From: Candidatus Sumerlaeia bacterium
Lineage (GTDB): Bacteria > Sumerlaeota > Sumerlaeia > SLMS01 > JANRJK01
Length of the DNA: 64,000 bases
Assembly (NCBI GenBank): GCA_033764015.1
Contig: JANRJK010000039.1
Location: 25,187-89,186, forward strand
Direction of reading: 5' to 3'
Shown: positions 3,870-34,889 of the stretch, in pieces
How the letters are laid out: each line of letters opens with the position of its first letter
How positions within the stretch are numbered: position 1 is the first letter of the stretch
Notes under the pieces: model-generated
What the model was told of the DNA's origin: nothing
Databases searched by the model: none
Seen by the model: the letters and a program-made list of their open reading frames with translations, nothing else
Made by a program: the position numbers and the translations under genes

Positions 3870-4889
3870 ATGCGCCTTCCTGCTGTCCTCCTTTACGCCG
3901 CCGTGGCAGCGTTCGCGACGCTCGCGGCACCGCTACCCGCCCAGTCGCGCGGCGAAGTCCTCACGGACGTTCCGTTCGCCAACGTGGGCGGACGCGACTT
4001 GATGATGAACATCCGGTTTCCAACGGACGGTTCCTCCCCGCCGTGGCCGCTCGTGGTGTACATCCACGGCGGAGGCTGGACCACCGGCTCTTACTCGGCT
4101 TCGCCGCCGCCCTACATCAACGAGCTGGCAGCCCGGGGCTATGCCGCGGCCAGCGTCGCGTACCGTCTCACGTCGCAGGAAGCGGATTGGGGCGGGGAGT
4201 CCGTGACGTTCCCCGCGCAGATCCACGACGTGAAGGCCGCGATCCGCTACCTGCGGGCGAACTCGACGACCTACAATCTCGCTCCGGACCGGTTCGCCGT
4301 GTGGGGACCCTCCGCGGGCGGGCACCTGTCCGCACTCGCGGGGACGAGCGGAAACGCACCGGAGCTTGAAGGCTCGGTCGGCGGCAACGAAGGCGTCTCC
4401 TCGGCGGTCCAAGCCGTCGTCGACTACTACGGGCCAAGCGACATCCTGATGATGAACCCCGACATCACCATCCCCCCCGGCTCGTCGATCAACCACGATG
4501 CCCCAACAAGCGGCGAGTCCGCCCTGCTCGGGTTCAACGGGACAGGGGAGGGGATCGGAGTCCTCCGGGCGAACATCGCGAACCCCAACCCGCCCTATCC
4601 GGAACTGGCGATTCTCGCCGAACAGGTGAACCCGATCTCTTGGGTGGATCCGTCCGATCCGCCCTTCTTCATCGTCCACGGAGAGAGCGATGTAGTCGTG
4701 CCGACCAACCAGAGCCAGCGCCTCGCGAACGCGCTGGCCGCCGCCGGGGTCCCGCACACCTTCCACCGGGTGCCGGGGATGGGGCACAACACGCCACCGG
4801 TGGAGTACAGCCTGGAGGCATTCGATTTCCTCAACAACACCATCGGCCCCGCCTCCCAGTCGCGAGTGCAGGGCTGGACGCTGCATTGA
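3870..4889 (+). CDS. Secreted alpha/beta hydrolase (BD-FAE/HSL-like esterase)
   Basis: Signal peptide MRLPAVLL...APLPA-Q. HGGGW oxyanion motif, GPSAGG nucleophile, HGESDVVVP, GMGH. Ends SRVQGWTLH. Confidence 0.85.
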   Translation: MRLPAVLLYAAVAAFATLAAPLPAQSRGEVLTDVPFANVGGRDLMMNIRFPTDGSSPPWPLVVYIHGGGWTTGSYSASPPPYINELAARGYAAASVAYRLTSQEADWGGESVTFPAQIHDVKAAIRYLRANSTTYNLAPDRFAVWGPSAGGHLSALAGTSGNAPELEGSVGGNEGVSSAVQAVVDYYGPSDILMMNPDITIPPGSSINHDAPTSGESALLGFNGTGEGIGVLRANIANPNPPYPELAILAEQVNPISWVDPSDPPFFIVHGESDVVVPTNQSQRLANALAAAGVPHTFHRVPGMGHNTPPVEYSLEAFDFLNNTIGPASQSRVQGWTLH

Positions 4890-4910
4890 GCACCCAGCCC
4901 CTGCGCCGCT

Positions 4911-5447
4911 TCAGAACGGCCCGAAACGCGTGATGTCCCCGATGCTGACCGCTCCGTTCGTCGGGTCGTACTCGACGTAGGGCACCACATCCCAAACCAC
5001 GTTCGGTCCGCAGGAGTGCAGCATGTACCTCCCCTCCGGCACAGCCGCCCAGACGGGGCCGTAGGTGTCGCCGCTCATCCCGATGGAAGTGGTCGCCCGG
5101 TCGCGGTAGACGTAGCCTTGGAAGCGGACCGCGTCGCTGAAGTTGTACGGCGCTGGACCGAACACGTCGCGGGGCACTTCGGCCAGGTAGGCGACCGGCG
5201 ACTCCAACCGCCAGAGCGGATCCTCGAGCAGGATGTCGCCCCCCGCGATCGCCGCGTGCGGGTATGCCGCGTTGTCCGTGCGGTATGCTTCGAGCGCGGT
5301 GGCGATGGTGCGCATGTCGGACTGGACGCGGGAGACCTTCGCGCGGGCCTGGGCGGCTTGGTAGTTCACCGCCCCGAGCGTCGCGAGGATCGCGATGACC
5401 GCGACCACGACCAGCAGTTCGATCAAGGTGAAGGCGCGCTGCGTCAT
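4911..5447 (-). CDS. Prepilin-type N-terminal cleavage/methylation protein (GspG-like pilin/pseudopilin)
   Basis: MTQRA/FTLIELLVVVAVIAILA class III signal (F+1, E+5), then RAKVSRVQSDMRTIATALEAY and C-terminal YDPTNG..SIGDI. Confidence 0.9.
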   Translation of the reverse strand: MTQRAFTLIELLVVVAVIAILATLGAVNYQAAQARAKVSRVQSDMRTIATALEAYRTDNAAYPHAAIAGGDILLEDPLWRLESPVAYLAEVPRDVFGPAPYNFSDAVRFQGYVYRDRATTSIGMSGDTYGPVWAAVPEGRYMLHSCGPNVVWDVVPYVEYDPTNGAVSIGDITRFGPF

Positions 5448-5452
5448 GGCTG

Positions 5453-6262
5453 TCACCACCAGATCGAGTTGGCGCCGTCGATCACGAAGCGGCCCGCCTC
5501 GTCCTTCGACACCGCCATCTTGATCGTCTTCTCCGGGAAGCCGGGGAAGGGGACGCGGACGGGGTACAGCTCGACGCCGGGCGCCGTCGGGTGCGGCTGC
5601 GGGGAGCCTACCTTCTCCGCGGGACGCGGCGTGAACGTGTCGTACCACTTCGCGAAGTCGTCGCGCAGGCTGCCCGGCGCGAAGATCGCCATCGTGTCGT
5701 AGTCCTTCTCGCTGGCGGCGCGCCAGAACGCCCGGATCACGCCCTCGGCGCTCTTCGGGTACGCCTCGCCGAGCGAGTCCGCCGCCTTGCGGGCGGCCTT
5801 CGCGGCCTCCACGCGCGCGTCGCGACTCTTCAGCGCTTTCTTCAGCGAGTCGCCCTCGCCAAGCTCCCAGAAGGAGAGGTCCTGGCGCAGCACTGTGCGC
5901 CCCGACGCATCCTTCGCGACCGCCATCGCGCAATTGTAGGTGTAGGCGCCGAACGGAACGGCGACGAGGAGCAGCTCGACGCCCTCGGCCTCCGGGTGCT
6001 TTCCGCGGTCCAGGATCTCGGGAGCGCCGGAGGGCGCGTAGCGCGAGGCCATCGCGAGGAAGTCCTCGGCGTTCGCGTCCGGCGAGATCTGCTTCAGGAG
6101 CGTAGCGTCCTTGCTGGCGAACGCACGCCAGTAGGTGATGACGACGTCTTCGGCGGTGGCGGGCGCTGGCGCCTGCGTGGCGGGGGAGGGATCGGCGGCG
6201 CACCAGTGCGGCGAGCCGGTGGCGAGCATCAGTGCGGCGGCGATCAGTCGGATGCGGTTCAT
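5453..6262 (-). CDS. Secreted protein with two tandem homologous ~90-aa domains, function unknown
   Basis: Signal peptide MNRIRLIAAALMLA, Pro/Ala linker, clear internal duplication, GGAG RBS upstream. Confidence 0.75.
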   Translation of the reverse strand: MNRIRLIAAALMLATGSPHWCAADPSPATQAPAPATAEDVVITYWRAFASKDATLLKQISPDANAEDFLAMASRYAPSGAPEILDRGKHPEAEGVELLLVAVPFGAYTYNCAMAVAKDASGRTVLRQDLSFWELGEGDSLKKALKSRDARVEAAKAARKAADSLGEAYPKSAEGVIRAFWRAASEKDYDTMAIFAPGSLRDDFAKWYDTFTPRPAEKVGSPQPHPTAPGVELYPVRVPFPGFPEKTIKMAVSKDEAGRFVIDGANSIWW

Positions 6263-6494
6263 AGTGTGGCTCCTTCGGAGGTCGGGTGTGTGGCGCCGTG
6301 CTGGCGTCCGGGGAGCACTCAACGCCGGCCCCGCTGCGATTTCCACATCCCGCCCGGCGATCGGGTCCGGGGTGCCGCTGGCCGGAGCGAACGGCCCCCG
6401 CCGCCGTCCGCGCCCGATCCGCGACCGTTCGCCGCGAACGCGCTTTCCCGTTGGGCGGCGGCAGGCATCCAGTTACGACAGAAGAGGAACCACC

Positions 6495-7703
6495 ATGGCC
6501 ACCAAGGCAGCCCCGACCCCCACCGCTATCCCCCGCATCTGGCTCGGACGCGGCCAAGTGCCGCTTCGCCACGCGCTGCGCATCGGCGCGGGACGCTCCA
6601 TCGCCTCTCGCGAAGCGCTCTACCACAGCCTTTTGTGGGGTGTGAGCATTGGCTTGGCGAACGGCATCATGACCCCGAGCCGAATCGGCTACATGATGTT
6701 TGCGAACCTCATGTTCTCCTTCGCGATCGGCTACCTGAGTTCCGTTCCTTGGCGCTGGCGTCTGGTGCCGGCGGGCGCACCGGTGGCGCTCCGCGCCGTT
6801 GCGTCGACGGTGGTGGCCTGCGCCGCGGGCTACATGCTGTTCGTGGCGTCGATGACATTGCCCCACTTCCTGCTGTACGGGGCGGGTCCCTCTCCGGAAT
6901 TGATGCGCACTTTCCTGCGACTCGGCGCGTTCGGATTCGTTTTCGCCGTGGTGGGCTTCTACATCGTGCTCGGCCAGGACGAGGAGCGCCGCGCGCGGCT
7001 CCTCGAGCGGGACGCCCGCCGCCTCGCGCGCCTGGCGGAGCAGGCGCGCCTCGTCGCCCTCCGCGCGCAGATCAACCCGCACTTCTTCTTCAACGCGCTC
7101 AACACCGTCGCCGCGCTGATCCCCACGCGCCCCGCGGACGCGGAGCGCGCCGTCGAGCTCCTCGCGCAGGCGCTCCGCCCCGTGCTGACCCGCGAGCAGC
7201 CGTTGCTCGCCAACGTCGCCTCGGAGGTGGAAGTGGCGCGCGCCTACGGCGAGGTCGAACGGCTCCGCGCCGGCGAGCGCCTAGCGCTGACCTTCGACAT
7301 CGAGCCCGCCGCCGCGGCGCGCGAGGTTCCTTCGCTGCTCCTCCAACCACTTGTCGAGAACTCGGTGCGCTACGGCCTCGATGCCACCACGGGGACGGTG
7401 GCGATCGCGGTCCGCGCCCGGATCGACGGAGGCGCGTTGCGCCTCGAGGTCGAGAACCGCGCAACCGGCGCCGCGGGTCCCGCCACCGGCGAAGCCGCCC
7501 ACCGGCCGGGCCACGCGCTCCACAATGTAGCGCAACGACTGCGCGCGCTCTTCGGCCCCGACGCCGGAATCCGCTGCGAAGTCGGCAAGGGCTGGGCGCG
7601 CGCGGAGGTCCGCATCCCCGCCACGGCGCCCGCACCCGAGGTGCTCGCCGCCGCCGAGCGCGCGCGCCGCTCCGCCCCGCCCCTGCTCACGGCGGAGGCG
7701 TGA
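6495..7703 (+). CDS. LytS/YehU-family membrane sensor histidine kinase
   Basis: About four N-terminal TM segments. H-box LRAQINPHFFFNALN, LLLQPLVENSVRYG, GHALHNVAQRL. GAGG RBS. Confidence 0.9.
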   Translation: MATKAAPTPTAIPRIWLGRGQVPLRHALRIGAGRSIASREALYHSLLWGVSIGLANGIMTPSRIGYMMFANLMFSFAIGYLSSVPWRWRLVPAGAPVALRAVASTVVACAAGYMLFVASMTLPHFLLYGAGPSPELMRTFLRLGAFGFVFAVVGFYIVLGQDEERRARLLERDARRLARLAEQARLVALRAQINPHFFFNALNTVAALIPTRPADAERAVELLAQALRPVLTREQPLLANVASEVEVARAYGEVERLRAGERLALTFDIEPAAAAREVPSLLLQPLVENSVRYGLDATTGTVAIAVRARIDGGALRLEVENRATGAAGPATGEAAHRPGHALHNVAQRLRALFGPDAGIRCEVGKGWARAEVRIPATAPAPEVLAAAERARRSAPPLLTAEA

Positions 7704-7704
7704 C

Positions 7705-8418
7705 ATGTCGGCCGCCACGCTCCGGGTGCTGATCGTCGACGACGAGCCGCTCGCGCGGGAGCGGCTGCGCATGCTGCTCGCGCGCGTCGGCGGCAACGAC
7801 GTCGCCGGCGAGGCCGCCGACGGCCACCAGGCGCTCCGCGCGATCGACGAACTGCAGCCCGACGTGGTCTTTCTCGACATCCGCATGCCCGGCCTGGACG
7901 GCCTCCGCGTGATCGAGGCGCTCGACGACCCCCCGCCGGTTGTGCTCTCCACCGCGCACGAGGAGCACGCGGTCCGGGCCTTCGACCTCGACGTGGCGGA
8001 CTACCTGCTCAAGCCCTACTCCGCGGAGCGCGTGGCGCGCGCGCTCGACCGTGCGCGCCGGCTCGCCTCGCCCGCCCCGCCGACCCGTGCCGCCACCCGC
8101 GTCGCCGCCCAGGACGGCGCCTCCACGGTGCTGGTGCCTGTCGACGCGATCGTGGCGATCCGTCTGGAGGAAGGCGTCGTGTTCATCCACCGCGAGGATG
8201 GCGAGCGGCTGATCGCGGACGACCCCTTGCAGCGCCTCGAGGAGATCCTCGCCGGAGGCGACCTGCTCCGGGTCAGCAGGCAGGCGCTGGTCAACTTGCG
8301 CCGCGTCGAGTCCTTCGAGCCCACCGACGAGGGTGGCCTCCGGCTGCGCCTCTCCGACGGTTCGACCGAGACCGCGTCGCGGCGGCGGGCCCGCGCGGTT
8401 CGCGCGCGGCTGGGGTAG
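7705..8418 (+). CDS. LytTR-family response regulator
   Basis: Receiver IVDDEPLAR, FLDIRMPG, DYLLKP. LytTR domain RVSRQALVNL...SRRR. Starts 1 bp after the kinase stop. Confidence 0.92.
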   Translation: MSAATLRVLIVDDEPLARERLRMLLARVGGNDVAGEAADGHQALRAIDELQPDVVFLDIRMPGLDGLRVIEALDDPPPVVLSTAHEEHAVRAFDLDVADYLLKPYSAERVARALDRARRLASPAPPTRAATRVAAQDGASTVLVPVDAIVAIRLEEGVVFIHREDGERLIADDPLQRLEEILAGGDLLRVSRQALVNLRRVESFEPTDEGGLRLRLSDGSTETASRRRARAVRARLG

Positions 8419-8472
8419 CCACACCGTTCCCGCTTGTCCACCGGCCCCCCTCGGCGTCCATCAAGGGGAGCC

Positions 8473-9114: not shown

Positions 9115-9167
9115 CATCACCGGGAACACCAACGCTTCGACCACCCCGCCGACGGAGGCGCCCCCCG

Positions 9168-12539: not shown

Positions 12540-12542
12540 CGC

Positions 12543-13694: not shown

Positions 13695-14425
13695 CAGCCC
13701 TTACCCCCTTCCAGCAGGTCGTGCCGGCGCAGGAAGCTGTAGGCGTTGGCGGCGCGGTGCGCGGCGCGGGCGTAGCCCTGCGGCAGCGCCGCCGAAGGCG
13801 GCGCGACCTCCGAGGGCGCCGTCGCGAGGTCGGCCACCACCTGCGCCATCGCCTTCTGGCTGCGTCCGAACCCCATGTCCACCGCGCACGCGGAGCTTTC
13901 CTCGAGCGTGTCGAGGAAGTGCCGCAGTGTCGCGTCGCTCCGGTTCATCATCGCGGGGAAATCGAACATGGCCGTGTCCAGCCGCGGCGTCACCGGCGAG
14001 GACTTGCGCACCAGGTCTACCCATCGCGTCAGCGTGCCGTCGACGCGCTCGACCTCCATCAGCACCAGCGCGGCGATGTCGTTCCAGGGGCAGAAGATCG
14101 GCTGGCCGGCGAAGTCGGTCAGCGCCATGCCCCCGCCGCCGTGGCGGGCGTCCTTCACCCAGATGAAGAGGTGCCCGCGGAGCGCGCCGTCGGAGACCAC
14201 GAATGCTCGCGCGCCGAAGGCCTCGAGCTGCTGCTTGAGGCCCTCCGCGTTCGCCACCTTCGCGAACCGCCGCAGGACCGTGTAGCCGGGCGACTTGAAC
14301 AGGCCGGGGACGTTCGCCTCCTCCTCTTGGAGCAGGCGCGCCACGGGGCGCGCGGGCAGTTCCAGCTCCGGCGGCTGCGGCGGCAGGATCAGGTAGTAGG
14401 TTTGCTGCGGTGCCGGTGCGGCCAT
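13694..14425 (-). CDS. Hypothetical protein (243 aa)
   Basis: Protein-like composition from MAAPAPQQTYYLIL. Stop overlaps the lpxK start by 1 bp, suggesting translational coupling. Confidence 0.7.
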   Translation of the reverse strand: MAAPAPQQTYYLILPPQPPELELPARPVARLLQEEEANVPGLFKSPGYTVLRRFAKVANAEGLKQQLEAFGARAFVVSDGALRGHLFIWVKDARHGGGGMALTDFAGQPIFCPWNDIAALVLMEVERVDGTLTRWVDLVRKSSPVTPRLDTAMFDFPAMMNRSDATLRHFLDTLEESSACAVDMGFGRSQKAMAQVVADLATAPSEVAPPSAALPQGYARAAHRAANAYSFLRRHDLLEGGKG

Positions 14426-14493
14426 TGCGCGAGCCTCGCTGCGGTGCGTGATGCGACCACGCAACGCCCCCGTGCAACGCGGGGCAAGGGCCG

Positions 14494-15648
14494 CTACCGC
14501 GCGGCCGCGGCGAACAGCGCCTCGACGAACGCGAGCGGCTCGAAGTCCCGCAGGTCGTCGATCCCCTCGCCGACCCCCACGAGCGTAACCGGGATGTCGA
14601 AGCGGTCGCGCAGCGTCACCAGCACGCCGCCCTTCGCGGTCCCGTCCAGCTTTGTCATCACAATGCCCGTGATCGGCACCGACTTCGAGAACTCCGCCAC
14701 CTGGTTGACGGCGTTCTGCCCCGTCGTCGCGTCGATCACGATCAGCGTCTCGTGGGGCGCGGCGGGAATCTGCTTCTTGATCACGCGGGAGACCTTCTCG
14801 AGCTCCGCCATCAGGTTGCTCTTGGTGTGCAGACGCCCCGCGGTGTCGATCAGCACCACATCGCAGGCCCGCACCGAGGGCCGCTGGAGCGCGTCGAAGA
14901 CCAGCGAGCCGGCGTCCGCTCCGTGCGGCGCCTTGACGATCTCCGCGCCGGACCGCGCCGCCCACACGTCGAGCTGCTCCACCGCCGCCGCCCGGAACGT
15001 GTCGCCGGCCACCAGCGCCACCTTGAGCCCCTCGTCCGCGAAGCGCTTCGCCATCTTGCCGATCGTCGTCGTCTTCCCGACGCCGTTCACCCCGACGACC
15101 ATGACGACGTAGGGCGGCGCGACGCCGCGGGGATCGACCGACCGTCCGCGGCGCAGGAACACGCGCGCGATCTCGTCCTTCACCGCGGCCATCACCGCGT
15201 CGCGGCCCTCGATGCGCTCGCGCCGCGCCCGCTCCCGCAGGCGCGAGACGATCTTGCCCGTCGTCTCCATCGATACGTCGCTCTGGATGAGCACCTCTTC
15301 GATCGTGTCGAGGGTTTCCGAGTCCAGCTTGGCGCCGATGCCGAGGACGCTGCGCAGGCGCCCGGTGAGCGAACTCGAAGCCTTGCCGAGCCTCTCCGTC
15401 AGCCGCGCGAACCACCCGCCTCCCGGCTCTTCCGGCATCGGCTCGGCGCCGACCTTCTTGCCGCCGCCGAACAGGCCGCGCAGCAAGCCACGCTTCGCTT
15501 CCGGCGCCGGCTCCGCAGGGGAGGGAGCCGGGTCAGCGGCCGCCGGGGCGCCCTGCTCCTTCTTCCACTCGACGACGCGGCTGAAGAACCCCGGCCGCAA
15601 CTCGCGCTCCGTCGGCTGCTCCTGCGCTTCCCGCGGTTCCTCGGACAT
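14494..15648 (-). CDS. ftsY: Signal recognition particle receptor FtsY
   Basis: GVNGVGKTTTIGK, DTFRAAAVEQL, DTAGRLHT, DATTGQNA, TKLDGTAKGG, GVGEGIDDL. Confidence 0.97.
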   Translation of the reverse strand: MSEEPREAQEQPTERELRPGFFSRVVEWKKEQGAPAAADPAPSPAEPAPEAKRGLLRGLFGGGKKVGAEPMPEEPGGGWFARLTERLGKASSSLTGRLRSVLGIGAKLDSETLDTIEEVLIQSDVSMETTGKIVSRLRERARRERIEGRDAVMAAVKDEIARVFLRRGRSVDPRGVAPPYVVMVVGVNGVGKTTTIGKMAKRFADEGLKVALVAGDTFRAAAVEQLDVWAARSGAEIVKAPHGADAGSLVFDALQRPSVRACDVVLIDTAGRLHTKSNLMAELEKVSRVIKKQIPAAPHETLIVIDATTGQNAVNQVAEFSKSVPITGIVMTKLDGTAKGGVLVTLRDRFDIPVTLVGVGEGIDDLRDFEPLAFVEALFAAAAR

Positions 15649-15652
15649 CCGG

Positions 15653-16381
15653 TCAGCCCCGCCCTTCGACGAGCGCCACCATGTCGCGCACCGCGCGGTC
15701 CATCCCGGCGAACACGGCGCGGCCCACGATCGCGTGGCCGATGTTCAGCTCGTTCATTCCCTCGATCCGCGCCACGGGGACCACGTTGCGGTAGTTGAGC
15801 CCGTGCCCGGCGTTCACCACGAGGCCGAGCGCCCGCGCCTCCGAGCACGCCCGCTCCAGCCTCGCGAACTCCTCCGCCGCGCCGGCGGGGGAGTGGTCGT
15901 AGAGTTCGCAATAGCGTCCCGTGTGGAACTCCACGTGCGTCGCGCCGAGCGCGGCGGACGCCCGGATATGCTCGCTATCCGGATCGATGAACATGCTCAC
16001 GGCGACGCCCAGCGCCCGGAGCGCCGCGGTCCCCCCAGCGAGCGCGGGACCGGCGCCGGCGACGTCGAGGCCCCCCTCGGTGGTGACCTCCTCCCGGCGT
16101 TCCGGCACGTAGGTCACTTGGTGCGGGCGCAGGCGGGACGCGATGGCCAGCATCTCGGCCGTGCAGGCCATCTCCATGTTGAGGAGCCCCTTCACCGTGG
16201 CCTTCAACAGCTCGGCGTCCCGGTCCGTGATGTGGCGGCGGTCCTCGCGGAGGTGGAAGGTGATGCCGCATGCGCCGGCGAGTTCGCAAAGCGCCGCCGC
16301 GTGCACCGGATCCGGCTCGGTGATGCGGCGCGCGTTGCGGACCGTCGCGACGTGGTCGATGTTGACGCAGAGCTTCGCCAT
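15653..16381 (-). CDS. pdxJ: Pyridoxine 5'-phosphate synthase
   Basis: [59 protein letters not shown]. Confidence 0.97.
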
Positions 16382-16390
16382 GGGCGTGTG

Positions 16391-19094: not shown

Positions 19095-19109
19095 TTCTCT
19101 GGGCCTCCG

Positions 19110-20896: not shown

Positions 20897-20898
20897 GG

Positions 20899-22099: not shown

Positions 22100-23635
22100 C
22101 TACCGGACTAGCAGTCCCTCGCCGCGCCGCGCGAGGTCCGTCTCCACGCGCATCGTCATCAGGAACCCGTCCGCCCCGCCGTTGCTGGTTCGCGCCGTTG
22201 CGTCCGGCGGCCCGAAAATGCAGATGCCCTCGAACGAGCCCGCCAGCACCAGGCGGCCGTCATTCATCAGCTTCAGGTGCGAAGCGGTCTCGTTGCCCGT
22301 GCCGCCGATCTGGTGGGCCGCGATCGCGCCGCCGTCCGAGACGCGGAAGAGCGCCACGACCATGTCGCTCCCCCCCCGCGATTCCAGAAACGGGAAGCCA
22401 AGGTAGGAGAGCGTGTTCTCGAACGAGGAGACGGTGGCGGCGAGTCCCGCGTCGGGGAGGTACACCAGGTCCTGGGCGTAGTTGGCCCCTTCGCTGTTCA
22501 AGGCGCTTACCCAAAGGAGGCGGCCGTCGCCCCGCCGGGCCTTGGCGATGAACGTATCGGTCGCGGAGCCGACAGTGTTGAGGACCCGCGTGCTTCCGTC
22601 CGCCATCTGGAAGCCCGCGCCGTTGCTGTAGTTCCCTGCGAAGAGGAAATCCCCCGAGGGCAGCGCCTCCACATGGAACGCGTCGTCCCCGAGCGTGCCT
22701 CCGTGAGCCAGCGCCCACACCAGTTCGCCGTCGCCGTCGAACTCCGCCGTGAGGATGTCGAAGTCGCCCGCGCCGGTGAGCGTCGCCTCCGACGGGCGCC
22801 CGCACGCGAGTTTCGAGGTTCCGCTGAACTTCCCCACCGTCACGATGTGGCCGTCGGCGAACCGCGACACCGCCGAATAGAAGTCCTCGCGCTCCCCGCA
22901 GTTCGCCGTCACCCACGCCAGCGACCCGTCGCCACGGTACTTCGCGATCGTGCCGTCGAAGAACTTGTTCGTCTCCGGGTGGGTGAACTGGTCCGGCTGC
23001 CCCGTGCGGAACGTCAGCGAGCCCCGTCCCCACACGCATGCGAAGAAATCCAGCCCGCGTCCTGGCGCGAACTCCCGGCAGAGGCTCGTCAGCGGCCCGC
23101 TGATCCATTCGGTCCATTCGAAGCCAAGCCCGCCCGGCTCCACCGCTAGCAGCACCGGATCGAAGGACCCATCCACCGAGGACAAGCTGTACGGCGTCGT
23201 CGTCTCGGCCCCGATGGTTGTGGCGCCGGAGACGCCCAGGCTTGCGAGGATCGTCCCGTCCGGAAGAGCGCCGAGCTCGGGCGCCTCCTGGATCTGCGGG
23301 CCCCGCGCCGTGAACACCCAGTCCACCGCGTTCGTGTCGATGTCCATGCGCGCGAAGAAGACGTCGCCGTTCCCTTGGTGCTGCAGGGTGAAAGAGCCCC
23401 CACCGGTCCGAGGGAGAGTGAAGTTTCCGTAATACGAACCCCCGAAGATCACATCCGAACCGCCTCCGTACGGGAGGATCGGGAATGCGAACTGGTCGTT
23501 CAGCGATCCGAAGGTCAGCACGCGGTCGGTCGTGATGGTCGTCTGCGCGCGGGCGGCGTGTGGCAATCCTGCAACGACAATCGAAGCGGCGCACAGTACG
23601 GCGCGCCGCGACCCCGGGAATCCAAATCGAAACAT
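22100..23635 (-). CDS. Secreted beta-propeller repeat protein (SBBP-like repeats)
   Basis: Signal peptide ending AARA-Q. About seven repeats of D-x-F/hydrophobic-x-A...DG...W (GDVFFARMD, FDGTIAKYRGDG.LAW, FDILTAEFDGDG.LVW, TDTFIAKARRGDG.LLW). Ends GEGLLVR. Confidence 0.75.
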   Translation of the reverse strand: MFRFGFPGSRRAVLCAASIVVAGLPHAARAQTTITTDRVLTFGSLNDQFAFPILPYGGGSDVIFGGSYYGNFTLPRTGGGSFTLQHQGNGDVFFARMDIDTNAVDWVFTARGPQIQEAPELGALPDGTILASLGVSGATTIGAETTTPYSLSSVDGSFDPVLLAVEPGGLGFEWTEWISGPLTSLCREFAPGRGLDFFACVWGRGSLTFRTGQPDQFTHPETNKFFDGTIAKYRGDGSLAWVTANCGEREDFYSAVSRFADGHIVTVGKFSGTSKLACGRPSEATLTGAGDFDILTAEFDGDGELVWALAHGGTLGDDAFHVEALPSGDFLFAGNYSNGAGFQMADGSTRVLNTVGSATDTFIAKARRGDGRLLWVSALNSEGANYAQDLVYLPDAGLAATVSSFENTLSYLGFPFLESRGGSDMVVALFRVSDGGAIAAHQIGGTGNETASHLKLMNDGRLVLAGSFEGICIFGPPDATARTSNGGADGFLMTMRVETDLARRGEGLLVR

Positions 23636-23694
23636 AAGGCCACCCCCTCGAATCCGCCTCGCGGGCGAAAAGCCTGCCAGTGGCGGCTTGTCCG

Positions 23695-26214: not shown

Positions 26215-26237
26215 CCGCGCCCGCGCTGCCCCCGGGC

Positions 26238-27218: not shown

Positions 27219-27306
27219 CTTGCGCCAGCGGGCGCGCCGTTCGATAAACCGAACGCGCGCCCACCCTGCGGCGCGCCGCCTTCCCGCACACGGAGTGACT
27301 GCCAAG

Positions 27307-28788
27307 ATGCCGAACGCCCTGTCCGCCATGAGGCGCATCCTCCTCGCGGCCCTCGCCGCGGCCACCGCCTGCGCGGCCCCCGCCGGGCCTGTGGTCATCA
27401 GTGTGTCGCAGGAGACCCAGTTTGGCCAGAGCGTTTTCGTCTCCTCGCCGCGCCTCGAAACCGGGCTCGGCGACATCACCAAGTCCGTCAAGCTCTCGCC
27501 GCACAACTACCCGGTCTGGAGCGTGACGCTCGATCTCCCCGCGGGCGCGCAGATCACTCCCCAGTTCTACCTGCGCAGCGACGCCGCCGCGGACCTCGGC
27601 GGCGCGGCGAATGGCACCCTTGCCTCGACCGGGAGCACGCTCACGGCCGGCGCCGCCGACGATACGCCCACGACGATCACGATCTACCCTGCGCAAGCGT
27701 CGGACGTCGCGCTCGTCACGGTCATCTCCGCCAACGGCGGCGGGACCGTTGCGCAAATCCCCATGACACGGAACGACGCGAACGGCTTGGTGCGCTACGA
27801 GGCCCAACTCCCCGCCGTGCACGCCCGCGACCGCCACATGATGCAGGCTTCCGTCGGCGGGACGCTTTACCCCTCGGACGGCTACGTGCGCGTGAACCCT
27901 GCTCCGACCTGGTGGCGCTTCGGGCAGGGGTTCCTCTACGACCCCGCGACGATGACCGCCGCCCCCGCGGCCGCGCGGACCACCACGTTCACGTTCCAGC
28001 CCACCGCGGTCCCCGGCGGAGGCTCCGCGTTCGGCTCGCGGACGATCCGCGTCCAGCTTCCCCGCGGCTACGATGCCGCGACAAAGGCGTACCCGGTCCT
28101 CTATGCGCAGGACGGCCAGAACGTCTTCGCGCCCGGCGGACCATTCGGCTCCTGGGACCTCGATGTCGCCGTCCGCACTCTGACCAACAGGGCGGAGATG
28201 CCCGAAGTCATTTTGGTCGGCATCGACAACACCAGCGGCCGGTTCGCCGAGTACACGCCCGAGTACGGCAACATCAGCGGCACGCAAGGGCGCGGCGGCG
28301 AGTTCCTGACCATGCTCCGTGACCAGCTCCTCCCCGAGGTCGAAAGCCGCTACCGAGTCCTGCAGGGCCCGGAGAACACCGCCCACATCGGCAGCTCCCT
28401 CGGAGGACTCCTCGGCTTCCACGCGGCCAACGAGTTCGAGGACACCTGGGGCTCCGTGGTCGCCATGTCGCCCAGCTTCCAAGTGAACTCTACGGAGAAC
28501 TTCCGCCGCGCGCTCTTCGCGCCCGCGGAGTTCGGCCGCCTCTACATCGACTCCGGCAACACCGGCACCTCGGCGGACGGCTACGCGAACACGGTCACCG
28601 TGCGCGACCGGCGCCTCGAGGCGGGCGAGCCCCTCGGCGAGCGCTTCTGGCACACCGTCGGCCTCGGCATGCAGCACAACGAGGCCGCATGGCGCCAGCG
28701 CTCGCCCGACGCGCTGCGCTGGCTCTACTCGCCCGCGCTGCGGGAGGCGTCCCAGCCCTCCGCCGCGAGCGGCCTCCTGATCTTCTAG
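27307..28788 (+). CDS. Secreted esterase (Fes/IroE-like alpha/beta hydrolase) with N-terminal CBM20-like starch-binding domain
   Basis: Signal peptide. ETQFGQSVFV...LG...VKLSPHNYPVWSVTLDLP is CBM20-like. Also YPVLYAQDGQN, GSSLGG, YIDSG, HNEAAW.R. Ends SGLLIF. Confidence 0.8.
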   Translation: MPNALSAMRRILLAALAAATACAAPAGPVVISVSQETQFGQSVFVSSPRLETGLGDITKSVKLSPHNYPVWSVTLDLPAGAQITPQFYLRSDAAADLGGAANGTLASTGSTLTAGAADDTPTTITIYPAQASDVALVTVISANGGGTVAQIPMTRNDANGLVRYEAQLPAVHARDRHMMQASVGGTLYPSDGYVRVNPAPTWWRFGQGFLYDPATMTAAPAAARTTTFTFQPTAVPGGGSAFGSRTIRVQLPRGYDAATKAYPVLYAQDGQNVFAPGGPFGSWDLDVAVRTLTNRAEMPEVILVGIDNTSGRFAEYTPEYGNISGTQGRGGEFLTMLRDQLLPEVESRYRVLQGPENTAHIGSSLGGLLGFHAANEFEDTWGSVVAMSPSFQVNSTENFRRALFAPAEFGRLYIDSGNTGTSADGYANTVTVRDRRLEAGEPLGERFWHTVGLGMQHNEAAWRQRSPDALRWLYSPALREASQPSAASGLLIF

Positions 28789-28808
28789 ACCAATCGAAAG
28801 GCAACGCC

Positions 28809-30353
28809 TTGAAGCGAGCCCTCACCGCACCCGACCGCCTCGACACGCCCGGGCGCGAGACCGCCAAGTACGAAGCCCGCCTCGCCGACTGGCGCATGGG
28901 CCACACTGTCTACCAGATCTACGTGGACCGCTTCGCGCCCTCCCAGCGCCTCGATGGCAAGCGCCACCACTACGCCTCGCCGAAGCTACTCCGCGACTGG
29001 TCCCAGCAGCCCTCCCGCGGAAACTACCTCGCCGACGTCCACAACAACGAAGGCGAGATCGAGTTCTGGGGCGGCGACTTCGATTCGGTCCGCGGTAAGG
29101 TTGACTATCTCAAGCAACTCGGCGTCGAGGTGGTCTACTTCAACCCCGTCTTCGAGGCCTTCACGAACCACAAGTACGACGGCTACGACTACTTCAGGAT
29201 CGATCCGCAGTTCGGAACGAAGGAGGAGTTGAAGGAACTGGTCGAGGAGCTGCACGCGAACGGCATCCGCGTGCTGCTCGACGGCGTCTTCAACCACCTC
29301 GGGCGCCGCTCGCCCCACTTCCTGGAAGCCAAGGCGGACCCTTCCAGCCCGAAGCGCTCCTGGTTCTTCTTCGGCGACGAGTACCGCAACGGCTACCGCG
29401 CCTGGCGCAACGGCGCGAACCTGCCGGAGCTGAACCTCGAGAACCCCGAGGTGCGCCGCATGGCGATCGAGGGGCCGGACTCCGCGGTGCAGCATTACAT
29501 CCGCGACATCGGCATCGACGGCTGGCGAATCGACGTGGGGCCGGACGTCGGCTACCGCTGGTTGCGGGCCGTGACCGACAACTCGCACGAGGCGCGCCCC
29601 GACACGGTGGTGATCGGCGAGTGCTGGAACTACCCGGAGGAGTGGTTGCATGTGATGGACGGCGTGATGAACATGCACGCCCGCATGCTGCTCCTGAAGG
29701 GCATCGGCGGCGAAATGCCCGCCCGCGCCCTCGCCCGCGCGCTCGACCGGATGGCCGCCGACTGCGACGAGGACGGCCTCCTCCGCAGCCACCTCGTGCT
29801 CGACAACCACGACACTCCGCGGCTCCGCCACTTCCTCAAGAGCCACGTGCAGCGCGCGCTCGCGCGCACGCTCCAGTTCACGCTTCCGGGGTGCCCCGTC
29901 GTCTACTACGGCTCCGAGGCCGACATGGACGGCGGCCACGATCCAGGCAGCCGCGGCCCCATGGACTGGGACGCGGCCAACGACACCAACCCGCACTTCC
30001 GTCTGGTCAAGCAGCTCGCCGAGCTGCGCCGCGAGCACCCGGCCCTGCGGGTCGGCTCGTTCCGCGTCCTCGAGGCGGAGAAGCTGCTGGCCTTCATCCG
30101 CACCACGGACCGCGCCCGCGAGACCATCCTCGTGCTCGCAAACCCCTCGCGGGAGTGGGTGCGCGAACTGGTGCCGATCCGCGACTCGCGCCTCATGGAC
30201 GCCTCCGCGCTCCGGTGCCTGCTGAGCGGCGAACGAGTGCACCTTCAGTGCGGCACCATCGAGACCACCGTGCCGCCGCACTCGGCGCGCGTGTACCGCA
30301 CGGAGGACCTCGGCGACCGCCCCGGCTACTCGATGTTCAAGCGCGTCCCGTAG
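28809..30353 (+). CDS. GH13 alpha-amylase family glycosidase (cyclomaltodextrinase/neopullulanase-like), no signal peptide
   Basis: YQIYVDRF, NHKYD, LDGVFNH, catalytic DGWRIDVG / IGECW / LDNHD, PGCPVVYYGSE. TTG start inferred. Confidence 0.9.
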   Translation: MKRALTAPDRLDTPGRETAKYEARLADWRMGHTVYQIYVDRFAPSQRLDGKRHHYASPKLLRDWSQQPSRGNYLADVHNNEGEIEFWGGDFDSVRGKVDYLKQLGVEVVYFNPVFEAFTNHKYDGYDYFRIDPQFGTKEELKELVEELHANGIRVLLDGVFNHLGRRSPHFLEAKADPSSPKRSWFFFGDEYRNGYRAWRNGANLPELNLENPEVRRMAIEGPDSAVQHYIRDIGIDGWRIDVGPDVGYRWLRAVTDNSHEARPDTVVIGECWNYPEEWLHVMDGVMNMHARMLLLKGIGGEMPARALARALDRMAADCDEDGLLRSHLVLDNHDTPRLRHFLKSHVQRALARTLQFTLPGCPVVYYGSEADMDGGHDPGSRGPMDWDAANDTNPHFRLVKQLAELRREHPALRVGSFRVLEAEKLLAFIRTTDRARETILVLANPSREWVRELVPIRDSRLMDASALRCLLSGERVHLQCGTIETTVPPHSARVYRTEDLGDRPGYSMFKRVP

Positions 30354-30359
30354 CGGCGC

Positions 30360-31406
30360 CTACTTCGCGCGGAACGCTTCCTTGAGCGACCGCTTGTAGG
30401 GGGGGCGCAACACGCCCGCCTCGGTCACGATCGCCGAAACGTACTTCGCCGGCGTGACGTCGAAGGCGGGGGAGAAAACGCGCACCCCCTTCGGCGCCAC
30501 GCGCGTGCCGCCGAAGCTGGTGACCTCCTCCGCGCCGCGCTCCTCCACGGGGATTCCGGATCCGTCCCCCGTCGAGAGGTCCACGGTGCTAAGCGGCGCG
30601 GCGACGTAGAGCGGCACCTTGAAGTGCGCGGCCAGGATCGCCAGCGGCATCGTGCCCACTTTGTTCGCCGTGTCGCCGTTCGCCGCGATCCGGTCCGCGC
30701 CGACCACGACCGCCTGCACGCGCCCCTGCGAGAGCACCGTCGCCGCCATCGAGTCGGTGATGAGCACCGTGTCGATGCCCGCCTGCGCCAGCTCCCAAGC
30801 GGTGAGGCGCGCGCCCTGCAGGAGCGGACGCGTCTCGTCCGCGTACACCGTGAAGCGGCGCTTCTTCGCGGCCTCGTAGATCAGTGCCAGTGCGGTGCCC
30901 ATGCCGCCGGTGGCGAGCGCGCCCGCGTTGCAGTGCGTGAGCACGCCGTCCACTCCGTCGAGCAGCGGCGCTCCGTGGCGGCCGATCGCGGCGCAGGTGG
31001 CCCGGTCCGACTCGTGGATCGCAAGCGCCTCCGCCAGCGTGGCGGCGAGCACCTCCTCCGCCGTCGCCGCGTCCGGCAGCCCCCGCACCATCGCGCGGCA
31101 GCGGTCCAGCGCCCAGAACAGGTTCACCGCCGTCGGCCGCGAGGTGGCGAGGTAGTCCGCCGCGCGGAGAGCGACCCGCACCGCCTGCGCCCCGCTCCCG
31201 GGCTTCGCCGCCCGGACGGCGAGGAACACGCCGTAGCCCGCCGCGACTCCGATCGCCGGCGCGCCGCGGACGCGCAGCTTCTTGATCGCCTCCCACATCG
31301 CCTTCTCGTCCTTGATGGCGAGGAAGCGCGTCTTCCCCGGCAGCAGCGTCTGGTCGATGATGCGCACGTCGCGCCCGGTCCACTCGATCGTTTCGACAGG
31401 AGGCAT
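30360..31406 (-). CDS. mtnA: S-methyl-5-thioribose-1-phosphate isomerase
   Basis: IDQTLLP, RGAPAIG, SRPTAVNL, THCNAGALAT, DETRP, GADRIAANGDTANKVGT, PAFDVTP. Confidence 0.96.
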   Translation of the reverse strand: MPPVETIEWTGRDVRIIDQTLLPGKTRFLAIKDEKAMWEAIKKLRVRGAPAIGVAAGYGVFLAVRAAKPGSGAQAVRVALRAADYLATSRPTAVNLFWALDRCRAMVRGLPDAATAEEVLAATLAEALAIHESDRATCAAIGRHGAPLLDGVDGVLTHCNAGALATGGMGTALALIYEAAKKRRFTVYADETRPLLQGARLTAWELAQAGIDTVLITDSMAATVLSQGRVQAVVVGADRIAANGDTANKVGTMPLAILAAHFKVPLYVAAPLSTVDLSTGDGSGIPVEERGAEEVTSFGGTRVAPKGVRVFSPAFDVTPAKYVSAIVTEAGVLRPPYKRSLKEAFRAK

Positions 31407-31428
31407 GTCGCCTGCTCCTAGCGGATGA

Positions 31429-31441
31429 TTGACTTAGTCAA
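31429..31441. promoter_or_regulatory. Perfect AT-rich palindrome upstream of mtnA, candidate operator
   Basis: TTGACT-t-AGTCAA in the 42-bp gap between the large secreted gene and mtnA. Confidence 0.4.
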
Positions 31442-31448
31442 GAGAGCA

Positions 31449-34400
31449 CTACTCGAGGCGCCAACCGGTCGGGGCGAGCGCCGCGCGGACCACCTCCGAC
31501 GCGTCGACCACAAGCGCACGCCCGTCCTGCAGGCCGGCGACGAGCGTGCCGTCCGAAGCGGCCAGCGCTCGGATGTAGCGGAAGCCGTTCGCCGCCGGCG
31601 GCGGCTCCCAGCAACCCACGTGGCGGACCGTCCCCGATGGGGGCACGTGGTAGAAGTGCACCGCGTAGACGCCGTCCGCGACCGCGAGCACCTCCGGCGC
31701 CAACCACGCGACCGCCGACGCGTCGACCAGTTCCTCCGCCAGCGGGGCATAGTCCAGGGGCCGGCCATCCTCCGCAAGGTCCACCACCACCGCGCCACGG
31801 TTGCGCCGCGCGAAGGCGAGACGCCGCGAGCCCGGCTCGATGTCGCCCCAAGCCTTGAGTCGCGGAATCTCGAGGCGCTCGTGGTCTTCCTGCGACAGCG
31901 AATCCGCGGGAACGTAGTCGAGCCCGAAGTCCTCCACCGCGACCAGCACCGCGCCGTCGGCGAACGGGCCGAATACGTCCTGGAAGGTGCCCTCCGGCGC
32001 GAGGTACGCGGCCTCGCGCGCGAAGCCCTCCGGGCCGAGCGACAGCCGCCGCAGGCCGAGCTCGCGCGTCGTCACCCACCAGCGTTCGCCGTCCGCGAGC
32101 GCGTCCAACGCGCCTCCGGTGAAGGCGTAGAACTCCGCCGTGGGGGCGGACTCGAACTCGGCGGGGGAGTGGAATCGCAGGCCCGTCATGGTGCTGGTGC
32201 CGACGATGCCGCCGTTGGCGAAGAACCACTGCGAGGCGGCGTATCTGGTCGGCCCGGTGAACTGCCGCACGGCGCCGCCGTCCAGCAGCTCGAACACGCG
32301 CGGTGGAATCTGGTCCAGGTCGGTCAGCGCGCTCACCGCGACCAGCCGCCGCGCTGTATCGTACTCGATACGTTCGGGCCAAGTCGGCGATCCGAACGGC
32401 GCGCGCACGGGGACTGTGTGGGTGACTGGAAGGTCGAATTCGCACGGCTGGGCGCCCGCGTCCGTCTCGACCGACTCGACCGCAAGCAGGCCGCCTTCGC
32501 CGAAGTCCACGAGCGCGAATTCGCCGGGCGGCAACTCGATCCGCCAACGCCCTCCCCCGAGCCCGCTAGCTACCCGCCCGCCGACCAGGTCGCGCGGGGG
32601 CGCGAACCAATCGCTATCCGCGGTGAACTCCACCGCGACGCTCCGGTCGCCATCCGCGTTGACGAACCACGCGTAACTCCCGTCGGCGTCGGACGTGCGC
32701 GAGGCGATCAGCGGGCGCGGGACACCCGCCACTCGCGTTGGGAGGGCCAGCGACTGCAGTAACGGACCGAGCCGGTCCGTCATCTTATGGAACTCGACGA
32801 AGGGCGCCGCGACGGAGGTCCGCTCGAGGTCGAAGTCGCGGATCCCCTCGCGCCCGAAGATCGACGTCCACGTGAACGACAGCGTTCCCTTGATCCCCGC
32901 CGCGAGCCCCGCGCCGAGGTGCGCCCGGATCGCGGAGGGCTTCACCGCGCGGATGTGCTGCTGCTCCAGGGAGACGAAAGCCTGCGGCGTGAGCCAGAGG
33001 TCCTTGCCCGCCGCCGCGGCGGCCGCCGCGTAGCCCTCCAACTCGTCCTGGAAATCGAACAGGATGTCCGGGTCCGGCATCTGGATTCCGCTGTCGTACG
33101 GGTAGAGGTCGACGATGTGGACGGGCGAGTCGATGAGCGACAAATCCGCCGCGTCGATGTAGGCGGGCGCGTGGATGGCGAACGCGTTCTTGAGCACTGG
33201 GTCCTGCGCGGCCGCGAGCTGCACCCGCCGCAGACGCCGGAACGCCCGGTCCCCGAAAGGCTCGTCCACCGCGTAAATGCCCATGAAGTGGGGCGAGCCC
33301 GAGACCGGGGCCGCGAGCGCGCGCGCCTCCGACGTGTACCACTCGGACGAAAACGAGTCGTCGTAGAGCCGGTTCGAGAACAACCGGGTGATGTCGTCCA
33401 TGGATAGCAGGAACGGGAACGACTCCGCGTCGACGGCTTCGCGCACTTCGGCGAGCTGGTCCGCGCGCACGATCAGCATCCCGAAGTCGAAGCCGTCCTC
33501 CTTCGCCGCGCGGATCGCCCGCGTGATGTAGCCGGGCTCGTCGGTGGCGAGGAACCACATGAACGCGCCGTTCGGGAAGTCTCCGAGCCGGAACGGCGGG
33601 GGAGCGGCGGTCCCCGCGGGCGCCTCGACGATGGCGACGGGGGCTTCCAGCGTGAACGGATCGAAGCCGGTCCCTTCGAGCCGCGCGCGGATCGTCCAGC
33701 TCCCGGCGCCGGGGGCCTCCGCCACGGGCAGGCGCGCCCGCAGTGTGGTTCCGAGCGCCTCCGCGGCGAGCGGCCTCGCTACGCCGCGCGCCGCGTCGAC
33801 CAGCTCGAGCGTCCCCGTCGTCAGGAGGCCGGGTAGCGCCGCGGTCACCACCAGGTCGTCGTCCGGGCTCGTGCTGCCGACGGTCCACTCGGAGGGCTCG
33901 ACCAGCAGGAATCCGCGCGCGAGCGCCTCAATCTCCGCCGCGCCGGAGAGCGCCTCGATCCGCAGCTCCGAAAGTCCCGAGACATTCCGCGGCGTCGGGT
34001 CGAAGGCGAGTACCCGCTGGGTCGGGACACCTCCCCCGGGGATCGTCGCCGTTGCGGAGCGCGGCGCATCGGCGTCCGCGCTCGATCGCCGCAGCGGCGT
34101 CGCCGTTGCGACTATCTCCGAACCATCCGCGGAGGTCGCGCGGAGGAGGGTGAAGTAGCGCTCGAACAGCCGCCCCTGCACCACGGTCGCCGTCGCGGAC
34201 GAACCCGCCGCGAGCTCGAGCCTGCCGCCTTCCAACGCGGCACCGCCCGCGAGCGCCCAGCGCTCCCCGTCGAATGGCGGCGCGCCCTCGCGCAGCAACT
34301 CGAGGTTGTCGTATCGGACGAACGTGCGCGAGTAGCGCGACGCGGGGAAGAGCTGCGCCGTCGAGGATCCCTCGGGCATCCGGTGCAAAGTCCAGAAGTC

Positions 34401-34889
34401 GCCCCAGCCGCCTGTTTCCGTGCGCATGATGACCGATGCGTCGAACGTCGGCCAGTCGATGAACTGCAGGAGCGGGGAGTAGTGCTCGAAGTGGATCCGC
34501 ACCGTCTCGAAGTCGAATTCGCTCCATGCCTTGCCGCGCACCACGGCGTGCTGGAAGGGATCCGCCGGCGTCACCAGGTCCTGGTACCAGCCATGGAGGC
34601 GCTGCGAGCGGATCGAATTCGAGCCCTCGAAGGCGGTGGCCGGGTCGGTGTCGAACACCGCGAGGCGGAACTGGCTCCAGCCCGCAGGCAGCCCCGCCGT
34701 CGTCAGCGCCTCGAAGCCCGGGTTGACGATTTCGGGATTCGCGAGGAACCGCGGCTTCGGCATCGGATTGTTGCGCAGCGCGGCCACCGTGGAGCGCAAC
34801 CGGTCCCACCCCTCCTCTCCGGCCGGAGGCTCCTGCGCCGGAACGGAGCCCGCGAGCAGCGCCGCGCACAGCTGCAGCGCGCGCCTCAC
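31449..34889 (-). CDS. Large (~1146 aa) secreted multidomain protein: CBM-like beta-sandwiches, putative glycoside-hydrolase-like barrel, C-terminal beta-propeller
   Basis: GTG start overlaps the nth stop (GTGA). Signal peptide VRRALQLCAALLAGSVPA-Q. NPGFE..PAGW (CBM-like), GIYAVDEP / DLYPY / WLTPQAF core. Ends APTGWRLE. Confidence 0.7.
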   Translation of the reverse strand: MRRALQLCAALLAGSVPAQEPPAGEEGWDRLRSTVAALRNNPMPKPRFLANPEIVNPGFEALTTAGLPAGWSQFRLAVFDTDPATAFEGSNSIRSQRLHGWYQDLVTPADPFQHAVVRGKAWSEFDFETVRIHFEHYSPLLQFIDWPTFDASVIMRTETGGWGDFWTLHRMPEGSSTAQLFPASRYSRTFVRYDNLELLREGAPPFDGERWALAGGAALEGGRLELAAGSSATATVVQGRLFERYFTLLRATSADGSEIVATATPLRRSSADADAPRSATATIPGGGVPTQRVLAFDPTPRNVSGLSELRIEALSGAAEIEALARGFLLVEPSEWTVGSTSPDDDLVVTAALPGLLTTGTLELVDAARGVARPLAAEALGTTLRARLPVAEAPGAGSWTIRARLEGTGFDPFTLEAPVAIVEAPAGTAAPPPFRLGDFPNGAFMWFLATDEPGYITRAIRAAKEDGFDFGMLIVRADQLAEVREAVDAESFPFLLSMDDITRLFSNRLYDDSFSSEWYTSEARALAAPVSGSPHFMGIYAVDEPFGDRAFRRLRRVQLAAAQDPVLKNAFAIHAPAYIDAADLSLIDSPVHIVDLYPYDSGIQMPDPDILFDFQDELEGYAAAAAAAGKDLWLTPQAFVSLEQQHIRAVKPSAIRAHLGAGLAAGIKGTLSFTWTSIFGREGIRDFDLERTSVAAPFVEFHKMTDRLGPLLQSLALPTRVAGVPRPLIASRTSDADGSYAWFVNADGDRSVAVEFTADSDWFAPPRDLVGGRVASGLGGGRWRIELPPGEFALVDFGEGGLLAVESVETDAGAQPCEFDLPVTHTVPVRAPFGSPTWPERIEYDTARRLVAVSALTDLDQIPPRVFELLDGGAVRQFTGPTRYAASQWFFANGGIVGTSTMTGLRFHSPAEFESAPTAEFYAFTGGALDALADGERWWVTTRELGLRRLSLGPEGFAREAAYLAPEGTFQDVFGPFADGAVLVAVEDFGLDYVPADSLSQEDHERLEIPRLKAWGDIEPGSRRLAFARRNRGAVVVDLAEDGRPLDYAPLAEELVDASAVAWLAPEVLAVADGVYAVHFYHVPPSGTVRHVGCWEPPPAANGFRYIRALAASDGTLVAGLQDGRALVVDASEVVRAALAPTGWRLE

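Follow-up and report, generated by a model that had tools for sequence, protein, structure and literature searches.

The PEP-CTERM, GlyGly-CTERM, LPXTG and MYXO-CTERM signals of exported proteins each combine a signature motif with a transmembrane helix and a basic cluster, and are served by an exosortase, rhombosortase or sortase. The C-terminal domain of the type IX secretion system (T9SS) is a folded unit of 70-100 residues that marks hydrolases for outer-membrane export, and the dockerin is a calcium-binding domain of approximately 60 residues that binds cohesin. Recognition of folded substrates by type II secretion systems (T2SS) and related filament machines has been open for decades and, to our knowledge, no general linear signal is known. 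The present study concerns a tail of approximately 12 residues found at the C-termini of many unrelated exported proteins of a Candidatus Sumerlaeia bacterium (GenBank assembly GCA_033764015.1, here genome G000; 3.94 Mb in 55 contigs). It was noticed in a stretch of 64,000 nucleotides, referred to below as the window, which spans positions 25187-89186 of contig JANRJK010000039.1 (C39).

The closest described systems are found among type IV filaments. In two studies, the last ~10 residues of PilC/PilY1 are reported to provide a PilK/PilX minor pilin in trans with the final β-strand of its small sheet, published modelling gives the tail of MshQ a like role, and GspK of the T2SS carries the same strand in cis (PMC13533445; PMC13711793). 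The PilC/PilY1 tails are described there as having a conserved Trp, one or two residues that are often charged, and a conserved hydrophobic residue (PMC13711793; PMC13533445). According to PMC10120004, TcpF bears a disordered terminal export signal; this signal suffices for export and attaches to the minor pilin at the tip.

Definition of the terminal motif

The G+C content of the window is approximately 70%, which makes raw lists of open reading frames (ORFs) unreliable; genes were therefore called genome-wide using a self-trained codon log-odds model, yielding 2947 genes that cover 87% of the genome. An earlier note on the window had proposed that four unrelated secreted proteins share the end G-[W/L]-x-[L/V/I]-x-stop. 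This pattern terminates 27 of the 2947 called proteins, compared with 6.4 expected from its internal frequency, and occurs only 1-8 times per offset when moved 2-11 residues inward. Across the proteins of the genome an excess of Trp is confined to positions -4 and -5 from the end, with 73 occurrences at each against 42 expected.

A Trp-anchored matrix of 14 columns, allowing one optional extra residue, was iterated over the C-termini. The last round yielded 55 C-termini at ≥10 bits and 63 at ≥8 bits, where random internal cuts predict 0.2 and 0.4, respectively. With the final matrix, 58 of the 2947 proteins scored ≥10 bits and 65 scored ≥8 bits, so that proteins bearing the tail, hereafter carriers, account for about 2% of the proteome. 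On leave-one-out scoring 52 of the 55 tails retained ≥8 bits (median 16.3).

The motif that emerged extends over approximately 12 residues, P-x-[AS]-[SAG]-[AV]-x-[GSD]-W-x-[LMIV]-[YRFH]-(E/Q)-stop. Among the 55 tails, the portion preceding the Trp follows the consensus P/A - A/P - A/S - G/A/S - V/A - E/T/D/S, and the residue immediately before it is G in 34, S in 10 and D in 6. The Trp is near invariant (49/55) and is followed by a variable residue, then by L, V, M or I in 49 tails (L in 31), and then by Y (25), R (16) or F (7). One additional terminal residue is present in 19 tails, and is E in 13 of those. The tail shared by many exported proteins is real, though the pattern as first written was too loose, the true motif being longer and centred on Trp.

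Carrier proteins

A signal peptide was assigned using a generous heuristic that is positive for 38% of all proteins. By this measure 50 of the 58 carriers are positive compared with 1072 of the 2889 other proteins (odds ratio 10.6, p = 2.8e-14). Enrichment among signal-peptide proteins, which the earlier note had put forward as the check on its own pattern, also holds for that pattern, with 23 of the 27 matches positive against 1099 of 2920 others. Carriers are for the most part unrelated to one another, as had been suggested from the four proteins of the window: after removal of the tails, BLAST at E ≤ 1e-5 divided the 63 carriers into 53 components of at most four members.

Pfam was searched with 23 proteins from the window and the rest of the genome, comprising 22 candidate carriers and one neighbouring gene. 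Among them are BD-FAE and 'Esterase' hydrolases (one of them with CBM20), peptidases of families S8, S15 and M28, a GH16 protein that also has CBM6, an EEP nuclease/phosphatase bearing a lamin-tail domain (LTD), and proteins with CBM96/DNRLRE, DUF1501, PD40 repeats or diheme cytochrome c, while several matched no Pfam family. No Pfam model extended into the tail in any of the 23 proteins, and the T9SS domains PF18962 and PF13585 gave no match among them. A search of NCBIfam with 14 proteins returned no C-terminal sorting model at its cut-off; the sole trace, NF038129, scored 13.4 bits against a cut-off of 65 and lay outside the tail. Since the defining features of PEP-CTERM, GlyGly-CTERM, LPXTG and T9SS signals are absent, there being neither a helix and basic tail nor a family match, the tail falls outside these classes, in keeping with the view first taken of it. 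The β-signal of outer-membrane proteins, the last strand of a β-barrel with an aromatic residue at its end, was considered and rejected, the carriers having soluble hydrolase or binding folds and the tails having Arg at the aromatic position in 16 of 55 and an extra polar residue in 19 of 55.

Conservation in other genomes

Samples of ~0.4 Mb from each of six other genomes, which as kin are not mutually independent, were scored using the matrix trained on this genome. C-termini at ≥10 bits numbered 4 of 305 in a genome of the same family (G001), 2 of 251 and 2 of 286 in two genomes of the same order (G004 and G011), 2 of 299 and 0 of 282 in two from other families of the same class (G025 and G024), and 1 of 397 in a genome titled 'Candidatus Omnitrophota ... 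OLB16-2' (G049). Pooled, this represents 11 of 1820 C-termini, 10 of them on proteins with a signal peptide, compared with 0 of 17,970 internal cuts. The tail is present in five of the six samples, one of these titled outside Sumerlaeota, and is in this sense lineage-wide. OLB16 is treated as a separate phylum in PMC9765126. The sampled genomes range from 55 to 67% G+C, and the tail is therefore not a by-product of composition.

The 12 database homologues (31-65% identity) of a 271-residue carrier (C36:278861-279676) without exception have the end W-x-x-[YH]-x or W-x-x-[YH], with an invariant Trp and a Tyr conserved at 90% or more. Ends of this carrier's orthologues in six relatives, one of another class, include AWSLYE, NWSLYE, TWSIW, NWQMFE, NWHLYE, TWEMYQ and DWILH. 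This conservation indicates that the tail is under strong selection.

The tail as a terminal module

The AlphaFold2 model of the 271-residue carrier has a mean predicted local distance difference test (pLDDT) value of 86.6 and a predicted template modelling (pTM) score of 0.85, with the last strand of the fold at residues 251-258. Over the last 11 residues the pLDDT drops to 53 and then to 40, the tail being unpacked. Orthologues of other carriers can lack it altogether. The nearest orthologue of the window's BD-FAE esterase (Table 1), from another family and 59% identical, ends in ...PPKVVGE with no tail, and none of 18 distinct esterase-related ORF ends in relatives has one.

The family of the CBM20-esterase of the window was examined using 150 representatives, and its orthologue ends include ...DNWVVY and ...DKWLVR, or consist of W-x-[LV] and another 4-12 residues. 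Four of the 150 end in the canonical tail. A loose pattern picks out 19 further representatives, ~9 of which by eye have W-x-[LVM] followed by 2-12 residues, as in one that continues ...EGWTLT with 10 more residues. In at least 28 (among P0040-P0132) the site of the tail is taken by dockerin-like D-x-N-x-DG repeats, and most of the other 99 stop at the end of the fold. The tail is absent in some orthologues and replaced by dockerin-like modules in distant homologues, and thus behaves as an interchangeable terminal module. Its position beyond the folded domain, as the earlier note described it, is borne out by the orthologues that lack it and by the unpacked end of the model; the tails are not integral parts of the fold.

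A different recurrent end, [FY]-[FY]-R-[LIV] followed by 2-10 residues, was seen in ~15 of the 150 CBM20-esterase representatives (P0090-P0166), for example ...PRFYRLRLAR and ...RQFYRIEIQNP. It may be the C-terminal tag of another lineage or the last strand of an appended domain.

Pilin-like genes and secretion machinery

In the neighbourhoods of the carriers, taken as four genes on each side, a single family of ~36 pilin-like proteins was outstanding, and no other receptor candidate family was obtained from this analysis. The genome has 35 pilin-like genes as defined by the N-terminal motif; their Pfam matches, N_methyl and T2SSG, make them GspG-like, and the paralogues have in common the conserved end YDPTNGT-S-GD-I-x-R. 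A carrier is among the next three same-strand genes for 6 of these 35, compared with 3.0% of the other 2912 genes (p = 5.8e-4), giving six operons in which a carrier follows a pilin; of the 22 pilins followed on the same strand by a neighbour, 3 have a carrier in that place (p = 0.012). Seen from the carriers, a pilin-like gene lies no more than four genes away for 15 of 65, compared with 240 of the 2847 others (p = 3.4e-4), an approximately threefold enrichment. In one case the pilin and carrier genes share 4 bases, an overlap suggestive of coupling. The initial guess that a pilin or T2SS apparatus is involved has thereby acquired a statistical association between GspG-type genes and carriers.

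The same arrangement was sought in 79 loci of other Sumerlaeota genomes, a biased sample in that the loci were picked for containing a pilin relative. A carrier lies downstream of 10 of the 84 pilins compared with 26 of 717 other genes, and of all 801 genes 19 score as carriers with ≥10 bits, 15 of them with a signal peptide. In these loci the pilin relatives in named genomes are almost all from records titled Candidatus Sumerlaeota, Sumerlaeia, Sumerlaeaceae or BRC1. The record of OLB16-2 has a pilin followed by a protein of 275 residues ending in ...HWDLYE. A division of the tails into subclasses by the residue before the Trp (G against S, D or N) was tried for a relation to pilin adjacency and abandoned: the trend was weak here (2/9 against 33/56, p = 0.07), and the 79 loci showed none.

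The machinery of the genome comprises seven secretin-domain matches, 17 matches to T2SSE-type ATPases (five of full length) and prepilin peptidase matches, and includes two canonical clusters resembling a T2SS or a type IV pilus, at about 11.4-20.5 kb of contig C14 and about 123.5-132 kb of contig C17. Thirty-five GspG-like paralogues, together with these secretins and ATPases, represent an unusually large type IV filament inventory for a genome of 3.9 Mb. Some pilin paralogues have the end ...GDIWRLK, solitary ones among them, or ...GDVFRLRQ; by the tail matrix these reach 7-9 bits, which may hint at mimicry or be due to chance. Within the canonical T2SS-like cluster on C14, at 13891-16229, a protein with a T2SSK domain ends in ...RITRWIE and the adjoining pilin-like protein in ...DPGAVWLR, both loosely like the cargo tail.

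The carriers are also clustered among themselves, 20 of 65 having a second carrier within two genes. Two other kinds of gene turn up repeatedly at a distance of up to four genes from carriers, namely those for ATP-binding cassette (ABC) sugar-transporter permeases (4-5 of 5-6 paralogues) and sigma-factor-like genes (3 of 8), which suggests substrate-utilisation loci.

Genes of the window

Table 1. Genes of the window considered in the text; coordinates are counted from the first nucleotide of the window
Gene product	Coordinates	Strand	Family and context	C-terminus	Status
BD-FAE/alpha-beta-hydrolase esterase, secreted	3870-4889	+	Pfam BD-FAE, residues 46-289	...GPASQSRVQGWTLH-stop	carrier
GspG-like pilin paralogue	4911-5459	-	Pfam N_methyl and T2SSG; in alignment A2; convergent with the esterase at 3870-4889		
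β-propeller-like exported protein	22100-23635	-		...ARRGEGLLVR-stop	not supported as carrier
CBM20 and esterase protein	27307-28788	+	Pfam	...QPSAASGLLIF-stop	carrier, tail divergent
Large orphan exported protein, 1146 residues	31449-34889	-		...ALAPTGWRLE-stop	borderline carrier
Signal-peptide protein, 164 residues	55327-55821	-	called gene	...APAGSGATGAMVR-stop, ending ...TGAMVR	carrier

All four ORFs singled out in the earlier note are genuine coding frames, each recovered as a called gene, and end as it described in GWTLH, GLLVR, GLLIF and GWRLE; their membership of the tail class came out unevenly. The BD-FAE esterase is a clear member at 19.4-19.9 bits, with its tail encoded at approximately 4845-4886, and the CBM20-esterase is a member at 13.3-13.4 bits with Leu in the position of the Trp. 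The large orphan protein is borderline at 7.4-8.1 bits; it matches no Pfam or NCBIfam family, and a protein-database search with its residues 700-1146 found no homologue besides itself. The β-propeller protein is not supported as a carrier, scoring -0.8 bits, and three of its distant homologues are without the tail. One of these three, P0021, has a T9SS C-terminal domain (PF18962) and SBBP repeats (PF06739). The set of four was also incomplete, the gene at 55327-55821 having been overlooked: it is a clear carrier at 17.3-17.5 bits, and its product matches no NCBIfam family. The window has 53 genes in all, and for the remaining 48 the score is -2.9 bits or lower. A DNA repeat was considered as the source of the shared ends and rejected, as the 3' ends of the four genes do not align.

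Proposed mechanism and alternative explanations

Because its sequence logic resembles that of the PilC/PilY1 tails, it is unpacked, extra residues are tolerated and pilin adjacency is above chance, the tail is put forward as a modular C-terminal docking or export tag that would bring cargo to a pilin-like subunit of a filament machine, a tentative reading that falls somewhat short of probable. The tag would consist of a short Pro/Ala/Ser linker followed by [GSD]-W-x-[LMIV]-[YRFH], often with a final E or Q, appended to unrelated Sec-exported enzymes and binding proteins of Sumerlaeota. Following export to the periplasm and folding of the carrier, the unpacked tail would become a short β-strand and, in a type IV filament machine of the T2SS or type IV pilus kind, dock on one of the pilin-like subunits, in a manner akin to the last ~10 residues of PilC/PilY1 completing the sheet of a PilK-family minor pilin. 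The cargo could then traverse a secretin, or the filament could display it, and the 35 GspG-like paralogues, several of which lie directly upstream of carriers, might act as the docking subunits or as adaptors. The data above establish the tag, its enrichment, modularity and conservation, and its association with pilin genes; binding, the receptor, export or display, and the reading of the tag by any machine are inferred. The more sweeping claim, that a linear and transferable C-terminal peptide serves as the signal of a T2SS or type IV filament for ~60 hydrolases and binding proteins, by PilY1-style strand addition and with dozens of GspG-like adaptors, is possible but doubtful.

A number of observations weigh against docking on a pilin. 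No pilin-like gene is present within four genes of 50 of the 65 carriers, and a downstream carrier is missing for 29 of the 35 pilin-like genes. In the six genome samples the numbers of pilins and of tails are uncorrelated (3/4, 3/2, 1/2, 4/2, 2/0 and 7/1, pilins first, in the order given above). Secretins are weakly associated with carriers, 3 of 7 lying within three genes of one compared with 12.6% at random, numbers too few to weigh. The pilins in operons with carriers are GspG-like and not PilK- or GspK-like, and all eight that were aligned retain a C-terminal YDPTNGT-S-GD segment of their own, so that a simple missing strand is not evident. The PilY1 domain PF05567 has no match in the genome at E ≤ 0.1, and only 3-4 residues follow the Trp, fewer than the papers cited above describe for PilC/PilY1. 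There are carriers, among them the diheme cytochrome c and the DUF1501 protein, whose families may stay in the periplasm, and the gene calls, signal-peptide heuristic and tail matrix were all built by the authors, with no validated predictor. Structure prediction weighs neither way: the complex of an operon pilin (residues 50-222, alignment A2) with the 271-residue carrier (residues 22-271, alignment A3) gave a score of 0.01, and the AlphaFold2 model of the pilin monomer from eight paralogues had a mean pLDDT of 49, too low to interpret.

The tail might instead serve for sorting or for retention at the surface, its reader being a machine unrelated to pilins. A translocon of the outer membrane, a receptor at the surface or a layer of the envelope that keeps enzymes on the cell are the candidates, with the pilins as co-residents of substrate-utilisation loci. 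The position of most carriers away from pilin genes, their clustering with one another, the ABC permeases and sigma-factor-like genes in their vicinity and the uncorrelated counts all favour such a machine; we nevertheless consider it on the unlikely side, as the neighbourhoods yielded no receptor family except the pilins, adjacency to which is enriched in this genome and again in the 79 loci elsewhere, and the 4-base overlap suggests coupling. Less probable still is that the tail is the ligand of a PDZ domain or a C-terminal-processing protease (CtpA/Prc/DegP or a PDZ domain of the GspC type) acting in maturation, quality control or hand-over. PDZ domains are classic binders of C-terminal peptides that are hydrophobic or aromatic, and the genome encodes about eight PDZ-bearing proteins, one of which (C46:102473-103813) lies 3.7 kb upstream of a group comprising a pilin, a carrier and a secretin; the PDZ domain of EpsC is reported to be needed for secretion of VesB by the T2SS (PMC12369372). 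A PDZ ligand is argued against by a carboxylate whose distance varies, by one residue in 19 of the 55 tails and by 4-12 residues in ~9 CBM20-esterase orthologues, and by the Arg that follows the hydrophobic residue in 16 of 55, and neither of the two canonical T2SS-like clusters contains a PDZ match.

It is very improbable that the tail is no signal at all, being instead a structural end-piece (a strand packing in cis or an oligomerisation element) or a compositional by-product. The lack of a known receptor and the chance that a lone AlphaFold model misses an interaction in cis speak for this explanation. Set against it are the occurrence of the same tail across 53 unrelated groups, its absence from close orthologues and replacement by dockerin-like modules in others, its conservation across genomes of 55-70% G+C, gene ends with no DNA in common, and controls at internal positions that were near zero.

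Significance

Were a T2SS or related filament to read the tail, it would be the first general sequence signal for substrate recognition of the T2SS type. Recognition would become testable by peptides and point mutants, and there would be a role for the large families of pilin paralogues, so far without explanation, that this and other environmental phyla possess. With another receptor, the tag would still predict the secretome of an uncultured, polymer-degrading phylum and be a candidate handle for enzyme display. No description of the tail was found in the literature on secretion or pili of Sumerlaeota, on sorting signals or on signals of the T2SS, and the accessible portion of PMC8092238 mentions no such tag.

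Comparison with known systems

The tail is like the PEP-CTERM, GlyGly-CTERM, LPXTG and MYXO-CTERM signals in being a C-terminal tag that belongs to a lineage and occurs on many unrelated proteins with signal peptides, and in having come to light through a comparable genome-wide approach; it differs in having no hydrophobic helix and in ending 3-4 residues after the Trp. Ends resembling PEP-CTERM (PEP, a hydrophobic helix and a basic cluster) were seen in the OLB16-2 genome (G049; L238, and C1 near 251961); none was encountered incidentally in G000. The tail is like the T9SS domain in marking hydrolases across a secretome, and PF18962 occupies the equivalent site in one homologue of the β-propeller protein. 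Dockerins are likewise appended C-terminal docking modules, whereas the tail is a linear motif of ~12 residues.

TcpF and CofJ of the type IVb pili resemble the carriers as periplasmic cargo with a short, disordered terminal peptide; there the peptide is N-terminal, with one cargo per system, and here it is C-terminal and found in ~2% of the proteome. The likeness to PilC/PilY1, judged by the verbal description in the papers, lies in a Trp, one or two residues and a hydrophobic residue within the last ~10 positions. Both kinds of protein are Sec-exported and bear the peptide beyond the folded domain. PilC/PilY1 genes lie beside pilin genes, as do part of the carrier genes (15 of 65 within four genes), and their partner is pilin-like, as is proposed here for the carriers. 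PilC/PilY1 represents one adhesin family with the PilY1 β-propeller, whereas the tail occurs on more than 50 unrelated enzymes and binding proteins; the partner there is PilK-like, and the pilins here, to which binding is predicted, are of the GspG kind. Because the carriers are proteins of other kinds than PilY1, the tail stands outside the PilC/PilY1 family. What would be new is the proteome-wide use of a short C-terminal docking peptide, for which the PilC/PilY1 peptide is the nearest likeness.

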